The notes under the pieces were generated by a model that saw only the letters and a program-made list of their open reading frames with translations, was not told the DNA's origin and made no database searches. Source: an uncultured Saprospiraceae bacterium (GTDB taxonomy: Bacteria; Bacteroidota; Bacteroidia; Chitinophagales; Saprospiraceae). From it: a stretch of DNA of 64,000 nt. The stretch spans positions 63,228 through 127,227 of the forward strand of contig CALFBH010000004.1 in NCBI GenBank assembly GCA_937951615.1, given 5' to 3'. Positions within the stretch are counted from its first letter, which is position 1, and every line of letters begins with the position of its first letter. Positions 12,585 through 23,743 of this stretch are shown in pieces. The position numbers and the translations under genes were made by a program.

Positions 12585-14381
12585 TCACGCTTTAATTTCC
12601 CTGACTTCTGACTTTTGTTTCTCCAACATATCAAAATAAAAGCCTTTCCTTGTCACAAGTTCTTCGTGTGTACCTGCTTCAATAATCTGCCCATCTTCGA
12701 GGACAATAATTTTATCAAACTGCAATAAAGCATAAATTCTGTGCGTGATAATGATGGCTGTTTTATCTGATAAAGCAGTGTTCAAATAGCCCAAAATAGT
12801 CTGTTCTGTCGTGGCATCTACAGCTGACAAACAATCGTCCAAAATAATGATGTCTGGCTCTTTGACCAAAGCCCTTGCAATGGAAATTCGTTGTTTTTGT
12901 CCGCCAGAAAGTGTCACTCCACGTTCGCCAACTATCGTATCAAAACCTTTACTCAAACCCATAATCTCCTGATAAACAGCAGCATATTTTGAAAATTCAA
13001 TGATTTTATCGCGTTCTATACCTGTTGTACCAAAAGACAAATTGGTCTCTACGGTATCCGAAAACAAAAAGCCATCCTGTGGTACATACCCCATCCGTTG
13101 GCGCAAAGAAGCAAGGCTATAGGTCTTAATATCCTGCCCGTCCAGCAATACTTTCCCGCCGCTCACATCGTACAGTCGCACCAGCAAATCTGCTATCGTC
13201 GTTTTGCCAGATCCTGTGCGCCCGATGATGGCCATTTTTTGTCCGGGTTTCAGTTCAAAAGAGATATTACGCAAAGCCTCAATACCTGTATCAGGATAGG
13301 TAAATCTTACATTTTGAAAACTTATTTTCCCATCGAACTGTTCGACAGAAATCGTATTTTTTTCATCTTTTATGGCTGGTTCAGTCTCCAAAAACTCATT
13401 TATCCGCTTTTGCGAGGCTGCTGCCTGTTGTACAATTGAGGCTACCCAGCCTATCGCCGTGACGGGCCAGGTCAGCATATTGACATAGATAACAAACTCT
13501 GCAATATTGCCCGGTGTAATGTTGCCTTTGATGACTTGAATACCGCCAACGTAGATGGTAATAATCGTACTCATGCCAATCAGCAAGAGCATCAAAGGAT
13601 GAAATAATGCCTGCACCCGTGCCAATTCCATGGTCTTACCTTTGTAGGATTCGCTTTCGCCTGCGAAAAAACGTCCCATTGGTCCTTCCTGTACATAAGA
13701 TTTGATGACTCGAATGCCGGAATACACTTCTTGTGCTGCGCTGTTCAATACAGAAAGTTGCTTTTGTATGGCTTCACTTTTTTTATTGATTAAATTGCTG
13801 ACATAATAGATGGAAATGGATAAAAATGGTAAAGGTAGCAAAGCATATAAAGTCAGCTCCCGACTGACACTTAGCATCGCATAAATGACCATCGCAAATA
13901 AGCCGACCAAATTGATGGCATACATGATGGCTGGACCGAGGTACATACGTACTTTTCCCACATCTTCTGTAATGCGGGCCATCAGGTCGCCTGTATTATT
14001 TTTTTTGTAAAATGCTAAATCCAGATTTTCATAATGCACAAAAATTTCATTGCGCAGGTCGTATTCAATCAGGCGGGACATCACAATAATCGTCTGCCGC
14101 ATAAAATACATAAATACGCCCATGATTAAGGCCAGCACCAAGACCGTTATTCCAAAAAACAACAAAATACCTGCGAGAGAAGCGTAAAGCTTTGCCTGTG
14201 CATCAAAGCCTGCATACATGCGATACAGGCTGATATTTTCTACCACCAAATCGAGCGCGTGGCGCACCATCCTTGGTTGTAAAATTCTGAAATAATTTTG
14301 CCCAAACACCAGCAAAGTCCCGATGATGAGATGCCATTTGTACTGAACAAAATATTTATTGAGATAAAAAAGGTACTTCAT
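12585..14381 (-). CDS. ABC exporter, fused permease plus ATPase (MsbA/multidrug type)
   Basis: Six-TM N-terminal domain. Walker A GRTGSGKTT, signature LSGGQKQR, Walker B IIILDD. The start at MKYLFY (14381) is preferred over the track start at 14420, which reaches into the repeat region. Confidence 0.9.
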   Translation of the reverse strand: MKYLFYLNKYFVQYKWHLIIGTLLVFGQNYFRILQPRMVRHALDLVVENISLYRMYAGFDAQAKLYASLAGILLFFGITVLVLALIMGVFMYFMRQTIIVMSRLIEYDLRNEIFVHYENLDLAFYKKNNTGDLMARITEDVGKVRMYLGPAIMYAINLVGLFAMVIYAMLSVSRELTLYALLPLPFLSISIYYVSNLINKKSEAIQKQLSVLNSAAQEVYSGIRVIKSYVQEGPMGRFFAGESESYKGKTMELARVQALFHPLMLLLIGMSTIITIYVGGIQVIKGNITPGNIAEFVIYVNMLTWPVTAIGWVASIVQQAAASQKRINEFLETEPAIKDEKNTISVEQFDGKISFQNVRFTYPDTGIEALRNISFELKPGQKMAIIGRTGSGKTTIADLLVRLYDVSGGKVLLDGQDIKTYSLASLRQRMGYVPQDGFLFSDTVETNLSFGTTGIERDKIIEFSKYAAVYQEIMGLSKGFDTIVGERGVTLSGGQKQRISIARALVKEPDIIILDDCLSAVDATTEQTILGYLNTALSDKTAIIITHRIYALLQFDKIIVLEDGQIIEAGTHEELVTRKGFYFDMLEKQKSEVREIKA

Positions 14382-14444
14382 AGGTTGAAACTCAAATGCA
14401 AAAAACAAACTCAAACTCAAATGTAAATTATTTTGACATTTTAT

Positions 14445-14637
14445 TTATTTTGGACTTTGGACAATGGGACATTAGGAAATTGGGGTATTCGATAAAGCTT
14501 TGATTATTAATTTTTAACAAAAAAAATACATTCTTTTTTATTTAATAAAAAATACATTCCTGATAATCAGTACTTTAAAATTTTAAACCTAATTTCCCAA
14601 TACCCTAATTCCCTTTTGTCCAAAGTCCAAATTTATT
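14445..14637. repeat. Long imperfect inverted repeat (~45-nt arms, ~95-nt spacer) in a divergent intergenic region
   Basis: Left arm is tttggactttggacaatgggacattaggaaattggggtatt. Right arm is cctaatttcccaataccctaattcccttttgtccaaagtccaaa. The outermost 16 nt of the two arms pair perfectly. The spacer holds a direct repeat aaaaaatacattcYt x2. Confidence 0.8.
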
Positions 14638-14882
14638 AGTCTTACAACAAAGTTAGACAAGATATTCTCTAATTAAACCATTTAGTAAAAAATAAATACC
14701 TAAGCAGCTATTTGTCAGTGTAATATTTTTTTACGACATTTAACTCGATAAAAGAACACACCGGATCTTTCCGGCTATTTATCACCTTAAAAATCTTAGA
14801 CCATGAAAACTAAAATCACCTTTACCCCCCCCGAAAACAATTTAACTTATTTTTAATCTGTTTATTTTCCATTTCTACAAGT

Positions 14883-17800
14883 ATGCTGACTGCCCAGACC
14901 TATGTCAATAAAGAATGGGTACAAAGCTCTGGCACACCAGATGAAGCGATTGACTGGCAGGCTTCGGTATTGGATGTCAATGGAGACATTCTGATAACGA
15001 CCAATACGACAACAGCAGGTCAGTCCACCAATATCCTGACCACTAAAGTCAGCGCAGAAGACGGCAGCATTCTTTGGGAAAAAGAGTATAATCATCCCGC
15101 CAATGACAAAGACTATGGTACTGCTATTGCCACAGACGCAGCAGGCAACGTCTATGTAGCTGGTGCTGCTAATATTCCCGGTGCAGGCTATGACTTTGTG
15201 CTGCTGAAATATGCAGATGACGGCTCTTTGCAATGGAGCAAAACCTACGATGGCATTTCTGCACAAAACGATGTACCTGTAGCTATTGCCGTGGATGGTG
15301 CAGGTAATGTATATGTAACAGGCGGCAGCCAGAACGGTACAGCACTTATTGATTACTGTACGATAAAATATGATGCAAATGGCAATCAATTATGGCTGGC
15401 TCATTACGATTATAACAGCCTCTATGACGCACCGATTGCCTTACAAATCGACCCGCAGGGCGATATTGTCGTAACGGGTGTGAGTGCTGAAAACACAAGC
15501 AACTGGGAGTCTGCTACCATAAAATACGATGCGAGTGACGGAACACAAATTGCGGAAAGCCGCATTGAGCAGTCCGCAGGCATAGCTGAGCCTGCCGATT
15601 TTACGATGGACGATAATGGCAATTTTTACATCACCGGAAAAACAAGTGCAGATGGCGTGAACTATGACATTCGCACCATAAAATTAACGGCGAACCTCGA
15701 CATCGCCTGGGTACAGGACTATGATGCAGCAGGTTTAGAAGATGCCGGCGTCAGTATAGATGTGGATGCACAGGGCAATATATTTGTCGGCGGTTACATC
15801 CACGATTCAGGCGGTACACGAAAGGCACTTGTGCTTCGCTATGACGCTGACGGCACACAAGTCTCCGATGAAACGATAAATACGAGTGCTGATACCGAAA
15901 TGACCATAGAACATATTAAGGTAGAAGAAAGTATCGTGCTGCTTACAGGCAAAATGGAGACTTCGGGCAGCAGCAAAATGTTTGCCCGCGCACAGGACAC
16001 GGACAATCAATTATTGTGGCAAAAGCAGGCATCCGGCAGTACGGAAAGCACCGGAAAAACGATTTTAATGGCTGACAATTCGCTCTCTGCGGAAGCTGAT
16101 AAAGGGGTGTTTATTACAGGAACTTCGGAAGGCAATGCGAGTATTATGACCACGACGGCCAAGTATAGCCGGTTTAATCCACCAACAGACGTCATCACAA
16201 ATAATGAAGGTGAACCTTTATATATGGACAGAATGGTGATTAGCCGTTTTCACAGAAATGCCGTCATAATAGAAAACATTGACAACAGAGACCTTACTTT
16301 TGGTCGGGCAGGTACTTTTCTGACGCCCGACGCGATAGCTATATTAAACCAAAATCTGAGTTTTGATATGAATCAGGCTTATCTCATCAAAATATTTCCA
16401 CAGTTGAGCAGTACGCTCAAATATTCGGAAAATCGGCTGGGCAGACAGGTACGTGTACCCGACTTTTGGACAAGTTTTGTGGTGGTGCTTCCACAATTTG
16501 CTACGTTGTCTCCCCTAAACCAGGTGACGGTATCACAGGCCTCGGCTGAGTTGGAACTGGTGCGGTCGGTGGTGCGGTATGCACATCCGAACCATATTAC
16601 ATCTGTCACAGGCTATGACATAGAAGCTTCAACACCTCCTAATGACCCACGCTACGAAGAACAATTATCACTCCATTATGTTCCTGGAAATCCACAAAGT
16701 TGCGATACTTGTCATATCAATATTGAGCCTGCTTGGAACGTCAGCGTAGGCAGACCAGAAATCAAGGTAGGGGTGTTTGATAGTGGTATCTACTGGAAAC
16801 ACGAAGACTTTGGATATGATGAATTTACTCCGAACAGTTCTGTGGTAAAAGGTGGTTGGTCTTTTAACACAGGAACAGTAGAGGGTCTTGACATGTTTAA
16901 TTTTCCTGATATTTCTCTTGCAGCTCAGACCGACCATGGTACCAGATGTGCTGGAATTATTGGTGCAGTTAAAGATAATGGTATAGGTATTGCAGGCATT
17001 GCGGGAGGAACAGATACCGATACACCTGGAGTATCTCTTTATGCTTTAAAAATTTTAAATTCCAACAACAATTTATTTTTTAGTCAGACAAACTTCGCTG
17101 CCGCTGCGATTATGAGTAGTTCTTTAAATAATGTGGACAGCATGGATTATGATTATGGGCTGCATATTCAAAATCATAGCTGGTCATTTAAAGGAGGTAA
17201 CGTCAGTTTTCAGCAAAATCAATTGGTCAGAGACGCAGTACATTTTGCTAATAGAATGCAGGTAATATTAGCTGCTGCCAGAGGAAATGACCTTAGTCCA
17301 AACGGAACAACAGACTTTCCTGCCTGCTATAATGATGAATGGGTGATGAATGTGGGTGGTTCTAGTGAAAATGGAAATTATTGGGACTATGCAGAATTTG
17401 GTTATAATCTTGATTTTGTAGCTCCAGCAGATTCAACTGGTGTCATTCTAAGTTTAAAATCAAGTTTGACCGGTAATGAATATGCTGAATTTAATGCGAC
17501 CTCTGCCGCTACTGCCCATGTATCTGGTGTAGCTGCACTTATGCTAAGTCATGCCAATGACTCTGCTGCTACCTATAACAACCTCGCCCCCGAAGATGTG
17601 GAATGGATATTAGAGAATACGGCAAAAGATATTTCGGATATTAATAATCTCAATATTAATCCTGGCTATGATGACTATACAGGACATGGACTTATTAATG
17701 CAGGGAAAGCTATGGAATTATTGCAATTTCCTTATGAGGTCAGACATATCAGTTCAAAGACTTCGCCTACAGACTATAATATTTTGCAAACCGCTGTCAA

Positions 17801-18485
17801 TGCTACGATTTATTACGAAGAACCTTATGATGTAGGAGAATATCCAATAGAAGATAGTACAGCTTATGAGGGGGATATATACAAAGTCACGGCAACCGTT
17901 GAGCATAACATCGGAATGGATAGTATTGCTGGTATATGGGAGCGACATTCCATGTCTAATCTTTTTAAAGAAGGAACTCCACTTATTAATCCTCCCAATT
18001 TTTACGACCTACTCCCTCACGAACAGGTGTATCTTGAAAATCATACTACAAATGAGGCAATTTTGCATGGTTTTGTATATCACTTAAAATACAAATTCGT
18101 GAATAATATGCCTATGCTGGTAGATGAATGGATACCGTTCGATCCATATAATCAAGAAGATAGCCTTTGTGTAGAATACTCGCTGCTATTGAAAAACAAT
18201 ACCAATAGCATTCCTACAATTGAGAAGGAAGATGTCTCTCTTTCTATTATTCCAAATCCTTCGGAGAGTACGCACACCTTATCAATGAATTTGTCCGAAA
18301 CGACTGATATTAATATCGCATTATATGATATGCAAGGCAGACTACTTCACATTATATATGAAGGTATATTGCCACAGGGTAAAAATAATATTAGCAATGA
18401 TATTAGTAGATTATCCCCTGGCATGTATTTCTATCGTATTACAGGCGACAGATGGCAAACTCTTGACAAATTTGTGAAGCTGTAA
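14883..18485 (+). CDS. T9SS-secreted SBBP beta-propeller plus subtilisin-like (S8) serine peptidase; 5' end apparently frameshifted
   Basis: SBBP-like repeats (YGTAIATDAAGNVYVAG..DFVLLKYADDGSLQW). S8 triad contexts VGVFDSGI, DHGTRCAGIIGA and NATSAATAHVSGVAAL. The C-terminal type-A sorting domain is LSIIPNPSES...LYDMQGRLL...GMYFYRIT. The ATG at 14803 and the signal peptide are out of frame across a C8 tract (see findings). Confidence 0.9.
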   Translation: MLTAQTYVNKEWVQSSGTPDEAIDWQASVLDVNGDILITTNTTTAGQSTNILTTKVSAEDGSILWEKEYNHPANDKDYGTAIATDAAGNVYVAGAANIPGAGYDFVLLKYADDGSLQWSKTYDGISAQNDVPVAIAVDGAGNVYVTGGSQNGTALIDYCTIKYDANGNQLWLAHYDYNSLYDAPIALQIDPQGDIVVTGVSAENTSNWESATIKYDASDGTQIAESRIEQSAGIAEPADFTMDDNGNFYITGKTSADGVNYDIRTIKLTANLDIAWVQDYDAAGLEDAGVSIDVDAQGNIFVGGYIHDSGGTRKALVLRYDADGTQVSDETINTSADTEMTIEHIKVEESIVLLTGKMETSGSSKMFARAQDTDNQLLWQKQASGSTESTGKTILMADNSLSAEADKGVFITGTSEGNASIMTTTAKYSRFNPPTDVITNNEGEPLYMDRMVISRFHRNAVIIENIDNRDLTFGRAGTFLTPDAIAILNQNLSFDMNQAYLIKIFPQLSSTLKYSENRLGRQVRVPDFWTSFVVVLPQFATLSPLNQVTVSQASAELELVRSVVRYAHPNHITSVTGYDIEASTPPNDPRYEEQLSLHYVPGNPQSCDTCHINIEPAWNVSVGRPEIKVGVFDSGIYWKHEDFGYDEFTPNSSVVKGGWSFNTGTVEGLDMFNFPDISLAAQTDHGTRCAGIIGAVKDNGIGIAGIAGGTDTDTPGVSLYALKILNSNNNLFFSQTNFAAAAIMSSSLNNVDSMDYDYGLHIQNHSWSFKGGNVSFQQNQLVRDAVHFANRMQVILAAARGNDLSPNGTTDFPACYNDEWVMNVGGSSENGNYWDYAEFGYNLDFVAPADSTGVILSLKSSLTGNEYAEFNATSAATAHVSGVAALMLSHANDSAATYNNLAPEDVEWILENTAKDISDINNLNINPGYDDYTGHGLINAGKAMELLQFPYEVRHISSKTSPTDYNILQTAVNATIYYEEPYDVGEYPIEDSTAYEGDIYKVTATVEHNIGMDSIAGIWERHSMSNLFKEGTPLINPPNFYDLLPHEQVYLENHTTNEAILHGFVYHLKYKFVNNMPMLVDEWIPFDPYNQEDSLCVEYSLLLKNNTNSIPTIEKEDVSLSIIPNPSESTHTLSMNLSETTDINIALYDMQGRLLHIIYEGILPQGKNNISNDISRLSPGMYFYRITGDRWQTLDKFVKL

Positions 18486-18499
18486 CAACCTAACTCTCA

Positions 18500-18540
18500 T
18501 TCCGATCCAGCTATTACTTAGCCGGATCGGAAATAATTTT
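18500..18540 (+). terminator. Possible terminator hairpin after the protease gene
   Basis: ttccgatcc-(15 nt)-ggatcggaa followed by ataattttc. The U-tail is weak. Confidence 0.35.
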
Positions 18541-18547
18541 CTCTGTT

Positions 18548-19687
18548 ATGAAATACAAATATGTATTATGCTTCTATCTGGTGTGTGTGTTATTGATTTC
18601 AGGCACTTGCAAGAAAGAAAACTTATTGACACTATTAACATCGTGTACTCACGATTTCAGCGAGGTTGTAAAGAATGAAGAATATAAAGTACTCCCAGCA
18701 CCTTGTCCAACTGGGATATGGTATGAAGAAGAACCACCATTAAGTGCCTATAACTACTACTCTCCTGTTTTCAATCCAAACAATCCAAATCAAATTGCAT
18801 ATATACGCTTTGATACACTTGCGCCATATCAGCAAAAGGGAGCTTTAGAGCTTCATACTTTTGATTTTTGTTCTGGTGAAGTAAGTATTGTAAATAGAGA
18901 TTCTATTGTAAGTTATACTGTAGAGTGGAGTAGTAAAGACTGGCTGTTATACAGAAAATGGTTCAAAGATATTTATAAAATAAAATCGAACGGTCAGTCC
19001 AAAACAAAAGTTGTTGATACATATATTAGTTTAAGCCAGAATCGCATTCCCATTTGGAGCGGCTCAGGTGATCATTTAGCCTGGTCAGGTGATGAACGAC
19101 CATTAATATACGGACTTTATGATAACAGCACCTGTGGTTTTGTGATTATGAACGAAAACGGTATGAAAGTCGACACCATATCCGAGTTTTGCAAGGTAGT
19201 TCCAAGCGGAGGTGTTCTATTTCAGAATTTTAATCTGAATCTTGAAATTGCCGACCATTTTTCATGGAGCAAAGACAACACAAAAATAGCTTGCGATGCA
19301 AGTGCCTATGTAGATTATCTATATTTATACGGCTTATTTTATTATGATTTTACTTTAGATGAAATAGTTTTTGTAGATGACCTGAATGCTTACCCTTGGT
19401 ACGGCAAAGTCACCGACACCGACTGGACACCCGACAGCCGAAAACTGGTGTGGAGTACGGAGCGCAGCGTCGGTTGGAAAGACATCTATTCCGGCGAAAG
19501 AAAAATCATCCTCACCGGACATGAAAACAGAAAGTATGAAAGCATAGATGTATCGCCCGACGGCAAAACCATTGCCATAGAACGCCTGAACAGGGTAAAC
19601 GTAAACGGCTGCACCAAAGTGGAACGAGCTATTTATCTGGTGAATATGGACGGCACGGATGAACGAAGGGTTTTGGTACCAGAGTAA
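18548..19687 (+). CDS. TolB/PD40-like beta-propeller lipoprotein, paralog A
   Basis: Signal/lipobox-like MKYKYVLCFYLVCVLLISGTC. PD40-like SPDGKTIAIERL and TPDSRKLVWS. Shares FNPNNPNQIAY and IYKIKSNG blocks with the next ORF. Confidence 0.7.
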   Translation: MKYKYVLCFYLVCVLLISGTCKKENLLTLLTSCTHDFSEVVKNEEYKVLPAPCPTGIWYEEEPPLSAYNYYSPVFNPNNPNQIAYIRFDTLAPYQQKGALELHTFDFCSGEVSIVNRDSIVSYTVEWSSKDWLLYRKWFKDIYKIKSNGQSKTKVVDTYISLSQNRIPIWSGSGDHLAWSGDERPLIYGLYDNSTCGFVIMNENGMKVDTISEFCKVVPSGGVLFQNFNLNLEIADHFSWSKDNTKIACDASAYVDYLYLYGLFYYDFTLDEIVFVDDLNAYPWYGKVTDTDWTPDSRKLVWSTERSVGWKDIYSGERKIILTGHENRKYESIDVSPDGKTIAIERLNRVNVNGCTKVERAIYLVNMDGTDERRVLVPE

Positions 19688-19802
19688 TTCATTTATCAGG
19701 GTTCATTTATCATTTCCAATAGGGCGTGTTCATTTTCTAATAGATGTGTACAAGTTCTGTATGATAAATGTTAAATGGTCAATGATAAATGTTCAATGAC
19801 AA

Positions 19803-20780
19803 ATGAACATGAAAACAACAACTTTTATTATTGCGATAAGCATCAGCTTATGTGCCTGTTCTTCCGCATTTTTTGCCTGCGAACAAGAATCTTTGGATGA
19901 CATTATTGACCATTGTCTGTTCAATAACACAGAACTTTTAGAAGACCATAATATACTTGGGTCCAGTAGCGGAATGCAGCAATGGCAGGTACTCGGCCCA
20001 GACTACCAGCATCCGCACTTCAACCCAAACAACCTCAATGAAATTGCTTTTCAGAAAAGCCGGGAAATATGGATTATAGATATGTGCACAGGAGAAAAAC
20101 GACTACTGATACCAGACTATGTCTCCAGCCTCTGGGACTGGGGCAAGACCGACTGGCTGATTTATACCAATACCGGCATGGATTTGTACAAAATAAAATC
20201 CAATGGCGACAGCCTGACCCGATTGACCACTTATGGCATATACAACACAAATGCACTCTTCAACTCTACAGGGGATAAGTATGTGTATAGAAAAATCATG
20301 GACGCCGAGGGTTTTTCGATTATTGCTAACCTTGACGGTGTTCATCTGGATACTATCGGTGGCCCTATGCGCTCGGACAGGATGCATTGGTTTGAAGATG
20401 GGAGATTATGTGGCAGAAACAGCGAAGGCATTGGATTTATTGACATTGCTTCTTTTGAAATGACCGCAATCGATTTTATTTATCTTCACTTCACCGTATA
20501 TGGGGCGCATTATTTGTATGATGATGCAAGTATTCTGTGGGGTACAAAGCAGTATTTGTTTCGTACAAATGTCGATACAGGCGAGCGTGCTATCATCAAA
20601 CAAGGAAGTGTTTCGCAGGTTTACCGAGAGTTTGATGTATCGCCCGACCAAAGTACGATTTTGGTCATTCGCTCCGATATGACACCTGGCTCGCCGAGTT
20701 ATATTATTGAGGAACGCAAACATCTCTGCCTGATGGATATTGACGGGCGGCATGAGCGACGGATGATGATTGACTGGTAG
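19803..20780 (+). CDS. TolB/PD40-like beta-propeller lipoprotein, paralog B
   Basis: Signal peptide ending SLCACSS. Blocks FNPNNLNEIAF, LYKIKSNGDS and SPDQSTILV parallel 18548..19687. Confidence 0.7.
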   Translation: MNMKTTTFIIAISISLCACSSAFFACEQESLDDIIDHCLFNNTELLEDHNILGSSSGMQQWQVLGPDYQHPHFNPNNLNEIAFQKSREIWIIDMCTGEKRLLIPDYVSSLWDWGKTDWLIYTNTGMDLYKIKSNGDSLTRLTTYGIYNTNALFNSTGDKYVYRKIMDAEGFSIIANLDGVHLDTIGGPMRSDRMHWFEDGRLCGRNSEGIGFIDIASFEMTAIDFIYLHFTVYGAHYLYDDASILWGTKQYLFRTNVDTGERAIIKQGSVSQVYREFDVSPDQSTILVIRSDMTPGSPSYIIEERKHLCLMDIDGRHERRMMIDW

Positions 20781-20938
20781 TCATTATCTAGTTTTATTAA
20801 CCAAATACAACATTTCCGCATAAAAAACCGCCAATGTCTAGCAGGATATAAAAAATTGTGTTTTCTTTGTTGTGCAAATTTAAAAACAATCATTGAGGAG
20901 TATTTTTTTCCTCCAACCCAATAGTCGTCCATAGGGAA

Positions 20939-21874
20939 ATGATAAGTAGAAGAAACGTTCGCATCAAAGTGATGCAAGTATTATATGCTATGAATCGCGA
21001 TGCAGCCGTCACTGCTCGGATTTCAAAAAAGCATTATGACGAGAGTGTAGAAACCTCGTACAGGATATATTTGCTTAATGTACTTCAATTGTACAAGTTA
21101 GCAGAGTATGTATTGCAGGATGCCGAATTGCGCAAGAAAAAGCATCTGCCTACCGAAGAAGATAAAAATCTTTCCACTAAGTTATTCCACAATCCTGTTA
21201 TTCAAACCATCGCCAACAGTGATGCGTTTAATACTTTAGTAAAGAAGCATAAGCTCTCTAAGCTACTGGACAGTGATTTCACTCGAAAGATGTATCTGGA
21301 GTTTTCTAAGTCAGATCTCTTCAAGACCTACCAACGCAATCAGGAGACTCAATTGGAAGATGACCGCGAATTATTGCTGGAAATGTACAAATTTCTGGTC
21401 AAGCATGAGCTGTTTGAAGAGCGTCTGGAAGACTATTTCACGAGTTGGCAAGATGACAAATCTCTTGTCGTTGGTGCTATGAAAAAAACCATCAAGCGGG
21501 CCAACGGAGAAGAATACTTCCATGAGCAACACCTTCCAGAAACGGAAACGGTTAGAGAATTTGGTGAAGACCTGCTGCATAAGGTCATGACTTTTGATAC
21601 TGATTTGTTGGAATTGATTGAGCCGATGTTGCAAAACTGGGAAGCCGAGCGCGTTGCTATCCTGGACATGATTCTGCTCAAAATGGCGGTTTGCGAATTG
21701 CTTCACTTTGAAACCATTCCAACCAAAGTCACGATTAACGAATACGTTGATATTTCTAAAATTTACAGCACGCCAAAAAGTAAAGAGTTTATCAATGGCG
21801 TACTCGACAAGCTGATGAAAAGGTTACAGGAGGAAGGTAAAATCAATAAAGAAGGACGTGGGCTGAAAGACTAA
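20939..21874 (+). CDS. nusB: Transcription antitermination factor NusB (long Bacteroidota form)
   Basis: N-terminus MISRRNVRIKVMQVLYAM. C-terminal ERVAILDMILLKMAVCELLHF..IPTKVTINEYVDISKIYSTPKSKEFINGVLDKL. Confidence 0.9.
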   Translation: MISRRNVRIKVMQVLYAMNRDAAVTARISKKHYDESVETSYRIYLLNVLQLYKLAEYVLQDAELRKKKHLPTEEDKNLSTKLFHNPVIQTIANSDAFNTLVKKHKLSKLLDSDFTRKMYLEFSKSDLFKTYQRNQETQLEDDRELLLEMYKFLVKHELFEERLEDYFTSWQDDKSLVVGAMKKTIKRANGEEYFHEQHLPETETVREFGEDLLHKVMTFDTDLLELIEPMLQNWEAERVAILDMILLKMAVCELLHFETIPTKVTINEYVDISKIYSTPKSKEFINGVLDKLMKRLQEEGKINKEGRGLKD

Positions 21875-22062
21875 GTAGTCTCAGTAGCAGTCTTAATTTC
21901 CAATTCCGAAAACTTCATTTCACACTTTTAAGAAAATCTTAATTAGTGGCTACATCTCTATAAAATCTAATCCAAACTGTTATTTTTGTGCTTTCCACAC
22001 AAGAAAAGCAGCTTCTTTCCGTTTGTAGTGGGCTTTTACATTTGAAAATAGTGAACTAAATT

Positions 22063-22986
22063 ATGAATTACACAGTAAAAATTATTTTGTTGGGCTGTAT
22101 GTCTATTTTATTGACTGCCTGCATTAGTAAAAAAGAATACGCAAAAATCCAGACTCAACTCGCTGATGCCAATAAAAATCTGGATGAGTATGGAGAGACG
22201 GTCAATGATTATATGACAAAATTATCTGCCTGCGAAAGAAATGCAGAAAAACTCAAAGGACAGGTAAAAAGTGCCAAGGGCAATCTCAAGTTGCGCGAAG
22301 AGCAAATTAAGGATTTGAAAGATCAGGTTTCGGATGTCCGCACACAACGCGACAAGCAGTTCAATCAGGTGGACGACCTGACCGTTCTGACTCAGGAAGC
22401 CAACCAGAATATTGAAAAGACCTTATCTCAATTAGAGCGCAAAGACAAGTACATCCAATATATACAGGAAGCCAAAACCAAGGCAGATTCTATGAATTTG
22501 GCATTGGCTGTCAATCTGAAAAGTGTATTGGAAGACGGCATTTCTGATGCAGATGTACAGGTAGAAGTGGATAAAACAGTGGTTTTTGTAAACCTATCCG
22601 ACAAAATGTTATTCCACAGTGGCAGCTCTATCGTCACACAAAGAGCAGATGAAGTACTGGGTAAAATTGCTAAAATTATTCAGTCGCGTCCTACCCTAGA
22701 AGTGATGGTGGAAGGCTATACAGATAATGTGCAAATCAGCCGCCCTTGCATGGAAGACAATTGGGATTTGAGTGTCAAACGCGCTACTGCGGTTGTTCGC
22801 AAATTGCACAAAGAGCATAATGTAAATCCTAATCGCCTGATTGCTGCCGGACGTGGAGAGTATAATTCGCTTACGCTAAATGATACAGAAGCCGGACGCG
22901 CCATGAATCGCCGGACACGCATTATCATTCTGCCAAAACTAGATGAGTTTTACGAATTGCTTGATCCTAATAATGTGCCGAAATAA
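22063..22986 (+). CDS. OmpA/MotB-family lipoprotein with an N-terminal coiled coil
   Basis: Lipobox LLTAC. OmpA_C motifs VEGYTDN, NWDLSVKRATAV and NRRTRIIILP. Confidence 0.88.
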   Translation: MNYTVKIILLGCMSILLTACISKKEYAKIQTQLADANKNLDEYGETVNDYMTKLSACERNAEKLKGQVKSAKGNLKLREEQIKDLKDQVSDVRTQRDKQFNQVDDLTVLTQEANQNIEKTLSQLERKDKYIQYIQEAKTKADSMNLALAVNLKSVLEDGISDADVQVEVDKTVVFVNLSDKMLFHSGSSIVTQRADEVLGKIAKIIQSRPTLEVMVEGYTDNVQISRPCMEDNWDLSVKRATAVVRKLHKEHNVNPNRLIAAGRGEYNSLTLNDTEAGRAMNRRTRIIILPKLDEFYELLDPNNVPK

Positions 22987-23001
22987 TTAATTATGAATGT
23001 G

Positions 23002-23063
23002 TTAATTACGAATTACGAATCTACGTCCAATTCGTAATTATCAGATTCGTAATTCGTAATTAA
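23002..23063. repeat. Perfect 19-bp-stem hairpin built from AATTACG heptamer words
   Basis: ttaattacgaattacgaat (23002-23020) pairs perfectly with attcgtaattcgtaattaa (23045-23063). Related copies at 40063-40135 and 50205-50252. Confidence 0.8.
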
Positions 23064-23068
23064 ACACT

Positions 23069-23614
23069 ATGAAATATATTTCCATGCTTCGCGGCATCAA
23101 TGTCGGCGGTAGAAAGAAGATCAAAATGGCTGAACTTCGGGAGATGTATGTCGCCCTTGGTTTTGAGGACGTGAACAGTTATATCCAAAGTGGCAATGTT
23201 GTTTTTGACTATAAAAAAACGAAGCCCGCTGAACTGGAAGCACAGATTAAACAAGCCATTCAGGATACTTTTGGCTTTGATGTTCCAGTACGCATCAGGA
23301 CAGCGGACGACTTTAAGCACATCATCAATAGCCATCCATTTTTTGATGCGGAGCAGGAATTGAAATTATTTCACGTTACTTTTTTGGCGGAAGCCCCAAA
23401 TACTGAAGCCCTTCAAAGCATTGCTGATTTCCAATATAAAGAAGATCTTTTTCAAATTGATGGAGACAAGATACACCTCTACTGCCCCGGAGGATATGGG
23501 GAAACTAAGCTATCCAATAATTTTTTCGAGCGTAAGCTCAAAGTTTCTGCTACAACTCGAAATTGGAAGACTGTTTTGAAATTATATGAAATGGCTATTG
23601 CGGATTGTCCATAG
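23069..23614 (+). CDS. DUF1697 family protein
   Basis: N-terminus MKYISMLRGINVGGRKKIKMAELR is the DUF1697 hallmark. Confidence 0.85.
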   Translation: MKYISMLRGINVGGRKKIKMAELREMYVALGFEDVNSYIQSGNVVFDYKKTKPAELEAQIKQAIQDTFGFDVPVRIRTADDFKHIINSHPFFDAEQELKLFHVTFLAEAPNTEALQSIADFQYKEDLFQIDGDKIHLYCPGGYGETKLSNNFFERKLKVSATTRNWKTVLKLYEMAIADCP

Positions 23615-23743
23615 TCCATAGTCCATAGTCCGCAGTCGATGGTTGTTTGATGGATAAAAAAATGAATTCATTCATTTTTCACACATTTTGCGAAGCAAAA
23701 TAACATGCATTTTCTATCGACCATGGACCATGGACTATCGACC
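23608..23743. repeat. Hairpin element E1: heptamer-word arms plus a TTTTGC-N3-GCAAAA core
   Basis: Left arm is tccatagtccatagtccatagtccgcagtcgatgg. Core is cattttgcgaagcaaaat (23684-23701). Right arm is ctatcgaccatggaccatggactatcgacc. Confidence 0.8.

Follow-up and report, generated by a model that had tools for sequence, protein, structure and literature searches.

A C8 tract disconnects the start codon from the body of a predicted type IX-secreted protease gene in a Saprospiraceae bacterium and may be the OFF state of a slippage switch

In a 64,000-nucleotide (nt) stretch of DNA from an uncultured Saprospiraceae bacterium (GenBank assembly GCA_937951615.1, contig CALFBH010000004.1, positions 63,228 to 127,227 of the forward strand; hereafter the window), a run of eight C residues separates the start codon of a subtilisin-like protease gene from the frame that encodes the protease, and a paralog with nine C residues at the same place reads straight through. 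A slippage on/off switch of the well-known kind is plausible at this site: C8 may be a real one-base slippage contraction that gives the OFF allele of a reversible ON/OFF tract, a reading to which we give slightly less than an even chance. The window is part of contig C4 of the assembly (6.96 Mb, 142 contigs, 40% G+C), and coordinates given without a contig name are those of the window.

A C8 tract places the start codon out of frame with the protease

The tract, CCCCCCCC, lies at 14825-14832 on the plus strand with an A on its 5' side and a G on its 3' side. It begins 22 nt past the ATG at 14803 and belongs to the 5' coding homopolymers of at least ~7-8 nt. As the original prediction held, eight C residues put this ATG out of frame with the long open reading frame. 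Translation from 14803 in the C8 state gave MKTKITFTPPENNLTYF followed by a stop, a short frame of 17 codons (14803..14856, plus strand) whose first 10 residues are those of the paralog N-terminus; its TAA is at 14854-14856, one codon further than the 14851-14853 first assigned to it. The long frame has 1223 codons. A TAA at 14811-14813 closes its 5' end, after which it reads NHLYPPRKQFNLFLICLFSISTSMLTAQTYVNKEW... and stays open until 18485. The earlier observation that it has no start codon between that TAA and the ATG at 14883 also held, with no ATG, GTG or TTG in 14814-14882. An alternative in-frame start within 14814-14882 was considered and rejected, as just ATC and ATT codons are available there and the leader would be without an n-region.

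Because the two starts sit 80 nt apart (14883-14803), one added C joins the frames. Tract length therefore works as a toggle on the predicted product: C8 gives 17 aa, C9 gives 1227 aa and C6 gives 1226 aa, the latter two both with a signal peptide, and C10 leads to an early stop. In the C9 version the n-region reads ACC CCC CCC CGA, so that the tract codes for (T)PP(R). Downstream of the C8 frameshift site, the long frame encodes an orphaned signal-peptide remainder, RKQ-FNLFLICLFSISTSML-TA (14833..14894, plus strand), with the predicted signal-peptidase cut between Ala (14892-14894) and Gln (14895-14897).

In the C8 state, none of the products initiated at ATG, GTG or TTG has an N-terminal Sec signal peptide. 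The open reading frame that can still be called (14883..18485, plus strand) encodes 1200 aa, begins MLTAQ without a signal peptide, and comprises SBBP beta-propeller repeats, a subtilase domain and the C-terminal domain (CTD) of the type IX secretion system (T9SS). With the Por_Secre_tail domain in place, the C8 state would leave a T9SS cargo without its signal peptide, in agreement with the original prediction. The callable 1200-aa 'cytoplasmic' protease from 14883 is a misleading gene call. Annotation should place the true start at 14803 and flag a frameshifted or phase-variable gene.

A paralog in the same genome carries nine C residues

A protein search returned P0004 (1219 aa), which is coded on contig C3 of the same genome and starts MKTKITFTPPRKQFNLFLICLFSISTSMLTAQ. 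The C3 gene has C9 at the homologous place (C3:28741-28749), and its flanks are otherwise almost identical to those of the window copy, with 4 substitutions in the surrounding 310 nt. Adding one C to the window copy reproduced the paralog N-terminus residue for residue, a match beyond chance, including the complete Sec signal peptide that had been expected from nine C residues. The genome has no further protease of this type besides the window copy and the C3 paralog.

The two genes are 93-99% identical over most of the first 300 codons and ~50% identical beyond. This pattern shows that the 5' third, including ~80 nt upstream of the ATG, was recently homogenised between the paralogs; the C tract is young and was copied along with it. 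The two genes form a gene-conversion mosaic (window 14722-15700 against C3:28640-29600), in which the highly identical part takes in the 80 nt ahead of the ATG and the bulk of codons 1-300. Two metagenome relatives, P0006 and P0007, have the same shared propeller with alternative catalytic halves.

The ortholog and the state of the gene body

An ortholog was found in 1 of the 40 related genomes, the same-genus Saprospiraceae metagenome-assembled genome G001, with 76% protein identity; most 50-codon windows of the pair were 71-91% identical and five were 55-66%. Two genes of 379 and 325 aa follow the window protease on the same strand (18548..20780), and at the G001 locus (L009) the protease is followed by genes of 388 and 329 aa. 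The shared pair of downstream genes identifies the window copy as the syntenic ortholog. The G001 gene starts ATG AGA ACG AAA ... TTG CCC AAA AAC, that is, with Met, a basic n-region, a hydrophobic core and AQ, and it has no C run. The ortholog comparison proposed in the original prediction thus returned the same start layout rather than a different architecture. A Met-led hydrophobic leader ending in (A/S) before an invariant Q-T-x-V-N-x-E-W was present in 6/6 homologs compared, a boundary that fits the predicted cleavage before Gln.

The pairwise ratio of non-synonymous to synonymous substitution rates (dN/dS) was 0.13 between the window copy and the ortholog, and 0.055 between the window copy and the paralog within their common 300 codons (dS 0.285, with 46.5 synonymous and 10.5 non-synonymous differences). 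No second lesion was seen in the 3.6-kb gene body. The gene is thus under purifying selection and shows no decay. Low dN/dS together with an intact body means that the frame cannot have been dead for a sizeable part of the divergence time, and the C8 state, if real, is either very recent or transient.

The same results argue against the explanation that the deletion is real but just a recent loss of function, namely a nascent pseudogene tolerated through the paralog with the tract as a mutational weak spot, even though homopolymer frameshifts are the commonest route of gene death and C8 is short for a contingency tract. The paralog, with the same N-terminal propeller, is intact, so that loss may be tolerated, but its catalytic half is only ~50% identical, so redundancy is not obvious, and the copy kept in synteny with G001 is the window copy and not the paralog. 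The tract is missing from the G001 ortholog and so has no long history; yet by analogy with the inlA poly(A) tract a C8/C9 tract would revert far faster than point mutations accumulate (PMC2831843). We consider a nascent pseudogene rather unlikely.

Assembly evidence at the tract

Homopolymer length is a classic error, the draft is in 142 contigs, and the near-identical 5' ends of the two paralogs complicate assembly; the true tract could on these grounds be C9 and the gene intact. A census of homopolymers across the genome gave little sign of such errors. Among A/T runs of at least 8 nt, 28/1323 (2.1%) gained a long spanning frame on a +/-1 change, vs 48/3000 (1.6%) of random positions, where the count also flags ordinary gene junctions and was used just for comparison with those positions. 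Among G/C runs of at least 6 nt, 159/287 were in intact frames and 7, each of 6 nt, were 'rescued', which matches the control rate. Within long genes, 5/6 G/C runs of at least 8 nt were in frame (all five being 8-9 nt), and the exception is the C8 run of the window. No genome-wide excess of homopolymer frameshifts was seen.

The window copy has a copy-specific A at 14789, 35 nt ahead of the run, and another at 14840, 8 nt past it, and it shares no exact stretch longer than 110 nt with the paralog. Because these bases closely bracket the tract, C8 cannot be the product of a paralog mix-up, and reads that bear C8 must exist. The lack of a homopolymer-frameshift excess and the flanking copy-specific differences therefore make an artefact less likely.

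Independent coverage of the tract was sought in other assemblies, metagenome contigs and partial products, and none was found. A Logan contig of run ERR9287619, found by the product of a downstream gene, is 100% identical to window 15644-23739 (8096 nt). It breaks in repeats, in the paralog-shared stretch at one end and in a hairpin element near 23740 at the other, and so begins short of the tract. ERR9287619 very likely holds the source reads. The protein search gave no near-identical partial product matching the N-terminal 260 aa, and in an exact-product look-up the product of the upstream gene was not on record. Mixed C8/C9 reads, if present, would themselves point to switching. The original prediction offered a switch or a homopolymer error; the indirect evidence leans towards a real C8 allele. 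We regard a sequencing or assembly artefact as improbable.

The remaining explanation, that a -1 ribosomal slip on C_CCC_CCC or RNA-polymerase stuttering supplies the missing base in some products, is very improbable: ACC CCC CCC in the ATG frame is a homopolymeric X_XXY_YYZ heptamer from which a -1 slip lands in the long frame, and low-level slippage on such runs is physically plausible, but no downstream stimulatory structure accompanies it (minimum free energy -9.2 kcal/mol, z +1.2 vs shuffles), paralog and ortholog alike plainly read without a shift, so that a frameshift is no conserved requirement, and Bacteroidota are not known to have the Shine-Dalgarno-type stimulators of known bacterial frameshift cases. 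With no downstream structure and homologs in frame, programmed recoding at the tract is unlikely.

G/C runs and exported peptidases across the genome

Long G/C runs are rare in this genome. Observed and composition-expected counts over 6.96 Mb were 1852/2935 for runs of 5 nt, 236/591 for 6 nt, 34/119 for 7 nt and 7/24 for 8 nt, a depletion of 1.6- to 3.5-fold. Beyond this length the counts exceeded the trend, with 4, 3, 2 and 1 runs of 9, 10, 11 and 12 nt vs 4.8, 1.0, 0.2 and 0.04 expected. CCC makes up 17% of Pro codons, and CCC-CCC was found in 23/2712 Pro-Pro pairs vs 82 expected. Given this scarcity of CCC and of CCC-CCC, the protein sequence does not account for the ACC-CCC-CCC-CGA string in the loosely constrained n-region.

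Four of the six in-gene G/C runs of at least 8 nt fall in signal-peptide-bearing peptidases, namely the two SBBP-S8-CTD paralogs, an S8-LRR gene and a Peptidase_C25 gene; of the remaining 2/6, one falls in an ECF-sigma-like gene and the other in a hydrolase gene. The S8-LRR gene (672 aa) has an in-frame C8 at C111:13705-13712, and the Peptidase_C25 gene (1572 aa) an in-frame G8 at C77:108636-108643. In both, the signal peptide is present, and a +/-1 change in the run would truncate the product at ~200-250 aa.

Among the ten G/C runs of at least 9 nt, seven fall in copies of one ~190-nt cassette. Read in the G orientation, the cassette consists of TTTG, a spacer that is mostly G9-G12, and a TAnnTTTG-like box, with a TTTG-to-TTTG distance of 27-29 nt in every copy despite differing run lengths. 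This geometry is that of the Bacteroidota -33/-7 promoter consensus (PMC9330008, PMC2483708). A conserved leader of ~100 nt lies 3' of the promoter-like part, with some covariation support for a stem and no Rfam match in the cassettes. The three closest copies differ in their run, which is G10, G9 or an interrupted GGAGGGGGG. Three cassettes are upstream of reprolysin-like metallopeptidase paralogs and one is upstream of a 1024-aa protein with a HEMGHxxGxxH motif. The cassette loci of the source genome (L013-L020) are C26:135733-135742, C41:60581-60590, C49:6698-6708, C52:18729-18738, C58:45989-45997, C61:13885-13893, C87:5859-5870 and C26:129918-129926, and a search of five same-genus genomes gave no copy. 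The cassette is a candidate promoter-spacer phase switch or a candidate new leader RNA. A likeness between the sequence after the C8 tract and the cassette was discounted as low-complexity.

A separate G11 run (C41:161465-161475, locus L021, G orientation) lies between TTTG and a TAtcTTTA box. It is 44 nt upstream of a 90-aa lipoprotein open reading frame (MLKLKKLSLLLCTVAAFMFTAC...); a 383-aa lipoprotein gene comes next.

The long G/C runs of this genome thus cluster at control points of genes for exported peptidases, and although the loci are few and partly non-independent, they make an expression-switch role for such runs more credible in this organism. A wider proposal is that a small G/C-homopolymer contingency-locus system individually switches the extracellular peptidases of this free-living bacterium, with 5' coding poly-C in both SBBP-S8-T9SS proteases and mobile promoter-plus-leader cassettes, with G9-G12 as the -33/-7 spacer, ahead of reprolysin-like metallopeptidases; we consider this rather doubtful.

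The encoded protein and its surroundings

Pfam searches of the frame from 14814 identified SBBP beta-propeller repeats, Peptidase_S8 (PF00082, E 2.6e-30) at residues 649-940 (16758..17633, plus strand) and the T9SS C-terminal sorting domain Por_Secre_tail (PF18962, E 7.3e-12) at residues 1145-1221 (18246..18476, plus strand). All S8 catalytic residues can be read from the translation: Asp (VFDSG), His (DHGT), Asn (QNHSW) and Ser (ATSAA). In the serine box (FNATSAATAHVSG, window ~17460-17500), Ala stands before Thr-Ser in place of the Gly that is usual in subtilases and is present in the G001 ortholog (GGTSAATPH), and the Pro of this box is likewise replaced by Ala. The protein may tolerate these replacements, or they may be an early sign that constraint has relaxed. 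T9SS core machinery is encoded in the genome, with GldK at 572 bits, above cut-off, and adjacent GldM_1st matches on C41.

The region upstream of the start (14722..14802, plus strand), a probable promoter and 5' leader, is common to the C3 paralog, whose alignment begins at 14722. It contains a small hairpin (14761-14774, plus strand) and a TAAAA motif (14788-14792, plus strand) 10 nt before the ATG at 14803; the ATG at 14883 is not preceded by such a motif. TAAAA located 2-12 nt upstream of a start is the Flavobacterium-type ribosome-binding motif (PMC2483708). An Rfam search of 14300-15000 gave nothing significant, the top match being FopS with 27.9 bits vs a gathering score of 56. Further upstream, between an ABC-exporter gene and the protease, a palindromic AT-rich element (14422-14648) is an interspersed repeat that occurs, complete or in part, dozens of times across more than 20 contigs of the assembly.

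Discussion

Our favoured reading is a stochastic, heritable and reversible switch for one of two paralogous secreted proteases. The gene product would be an SBBP-propeller/subtilisin protease with two export steps, first through Sec and next through the type IX secretion system. Slipped-strand mispairing would have contracted the tract to C8 in the sequenced DNA. Ribosomes starting at ATG 14803 would then terminate after 17 codons, and the 1200-codon body, left without a start codon and signal peptide, would yield a T9SS cargo that is kept from the periplasm and is not exported, which is the OFF state. Gain of one C or loss of two would restore the frame and so the ON state, which is that of the C3 paralog. 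This reading builds on what the sequence shows, namely the layout of the locus, the C9 paralog, the intact body under purifying selection and a T9SS in the genome, and it supposes that the DNA itself carries C8, that slippage at the tract is frequent and that the cell benefits from switching. The features of a contingency locus that can be read from a sequence, namely the tract, the frame toggle and the length difference between near-identical copies, are all present.

Several observations weigh against this reading. C8 and C9 are at the short end of fast-switching tracts. The tract was found in one genome only, the same-genus ortholog being without it, and a scan of JGI metagenome contigs with the tract flanks gave 0 matches. 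The association between G/C runs and peptidases comes from few loci that are partly non-independent, being paralogs or copies of one cassette. Simple-repeat phase variation is not established in Saprospiraceae, and among the papers searched none linked the two.

If the switch is real, control by homopolymer contingency loci would extend to costly secreted enzymes of Bacteroidota that live in the environment and not with a host. Stochastic ON/OFF T9SS proteases would produce subpopulations of producers and non-producers, which bears on public-goods dynamics in protein-degrading Saprospiraceae. A peptidase-wide system, if it exists, would mean that an environmental lineage of Bacteroidota subjects its secreted 'public-good' enzymes to simple-repeat phase variation. 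Homopolymer contingency loci are textbook devices of host-adapted pathogens, and in environmental Bacteroidota invertible promoters are the only well-known form of phase variation.

Among known systems, the opa genes of Neisseria resemble the window locus in that their CTCTT repeats lie in the signal-peptide coding region, a loosely constrained leader, and in that paralogs stand in different ON/OFF states. They differ in being built from pentamer repeats and in encoding the outer-membrane adhesins of a host-restricted pathogen. The closest analogues are inlA of Listeria monocytogenes and nanH3 of Gardnerella. The 5' poly(A) tract of inlA changes length at ~1000 times the frequency of point mutation (Orsi, Bowen and Wiedmann 2010, PMC2831843). 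As in inlA, the homopolymer lies within the opening codons of an exported protein's gene, an insertion restores the frame, and a one-base change leaves a short peptide, of 8 aa in inlA and 17 aa here (PMC2831843). The inlA tract is a poly(A) of a Gram-positive pathogen in which switching was measured, whereas here the tract is a poly(C) in the genome sequence of an environmental member of the Bacteroidota. The nanH3 sialidase of Gardnerella likewise has a coding poly-C tract in an extracellular hydrolase, with tract length setting full-length vs truncated product (Kurukulasuriya et al., bioRxiv 10.1101/2020.09.16.300947). In nanH3, length heterogeneity was found within cell populations by cloning and sequencing, whereas the C8/C9 difference reported here is between two paralogs in one assembly. 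In Campylobacter, intragenic and intergenic G/C runs of ~8-13 nt occur in an AT-rich genome in which such runs are otherwise rare, as in the Saprospiraceae genome (PMC8355987). Campylobacter lacks MutS/MutL-type mismatch repair and has dozens of validated loci.

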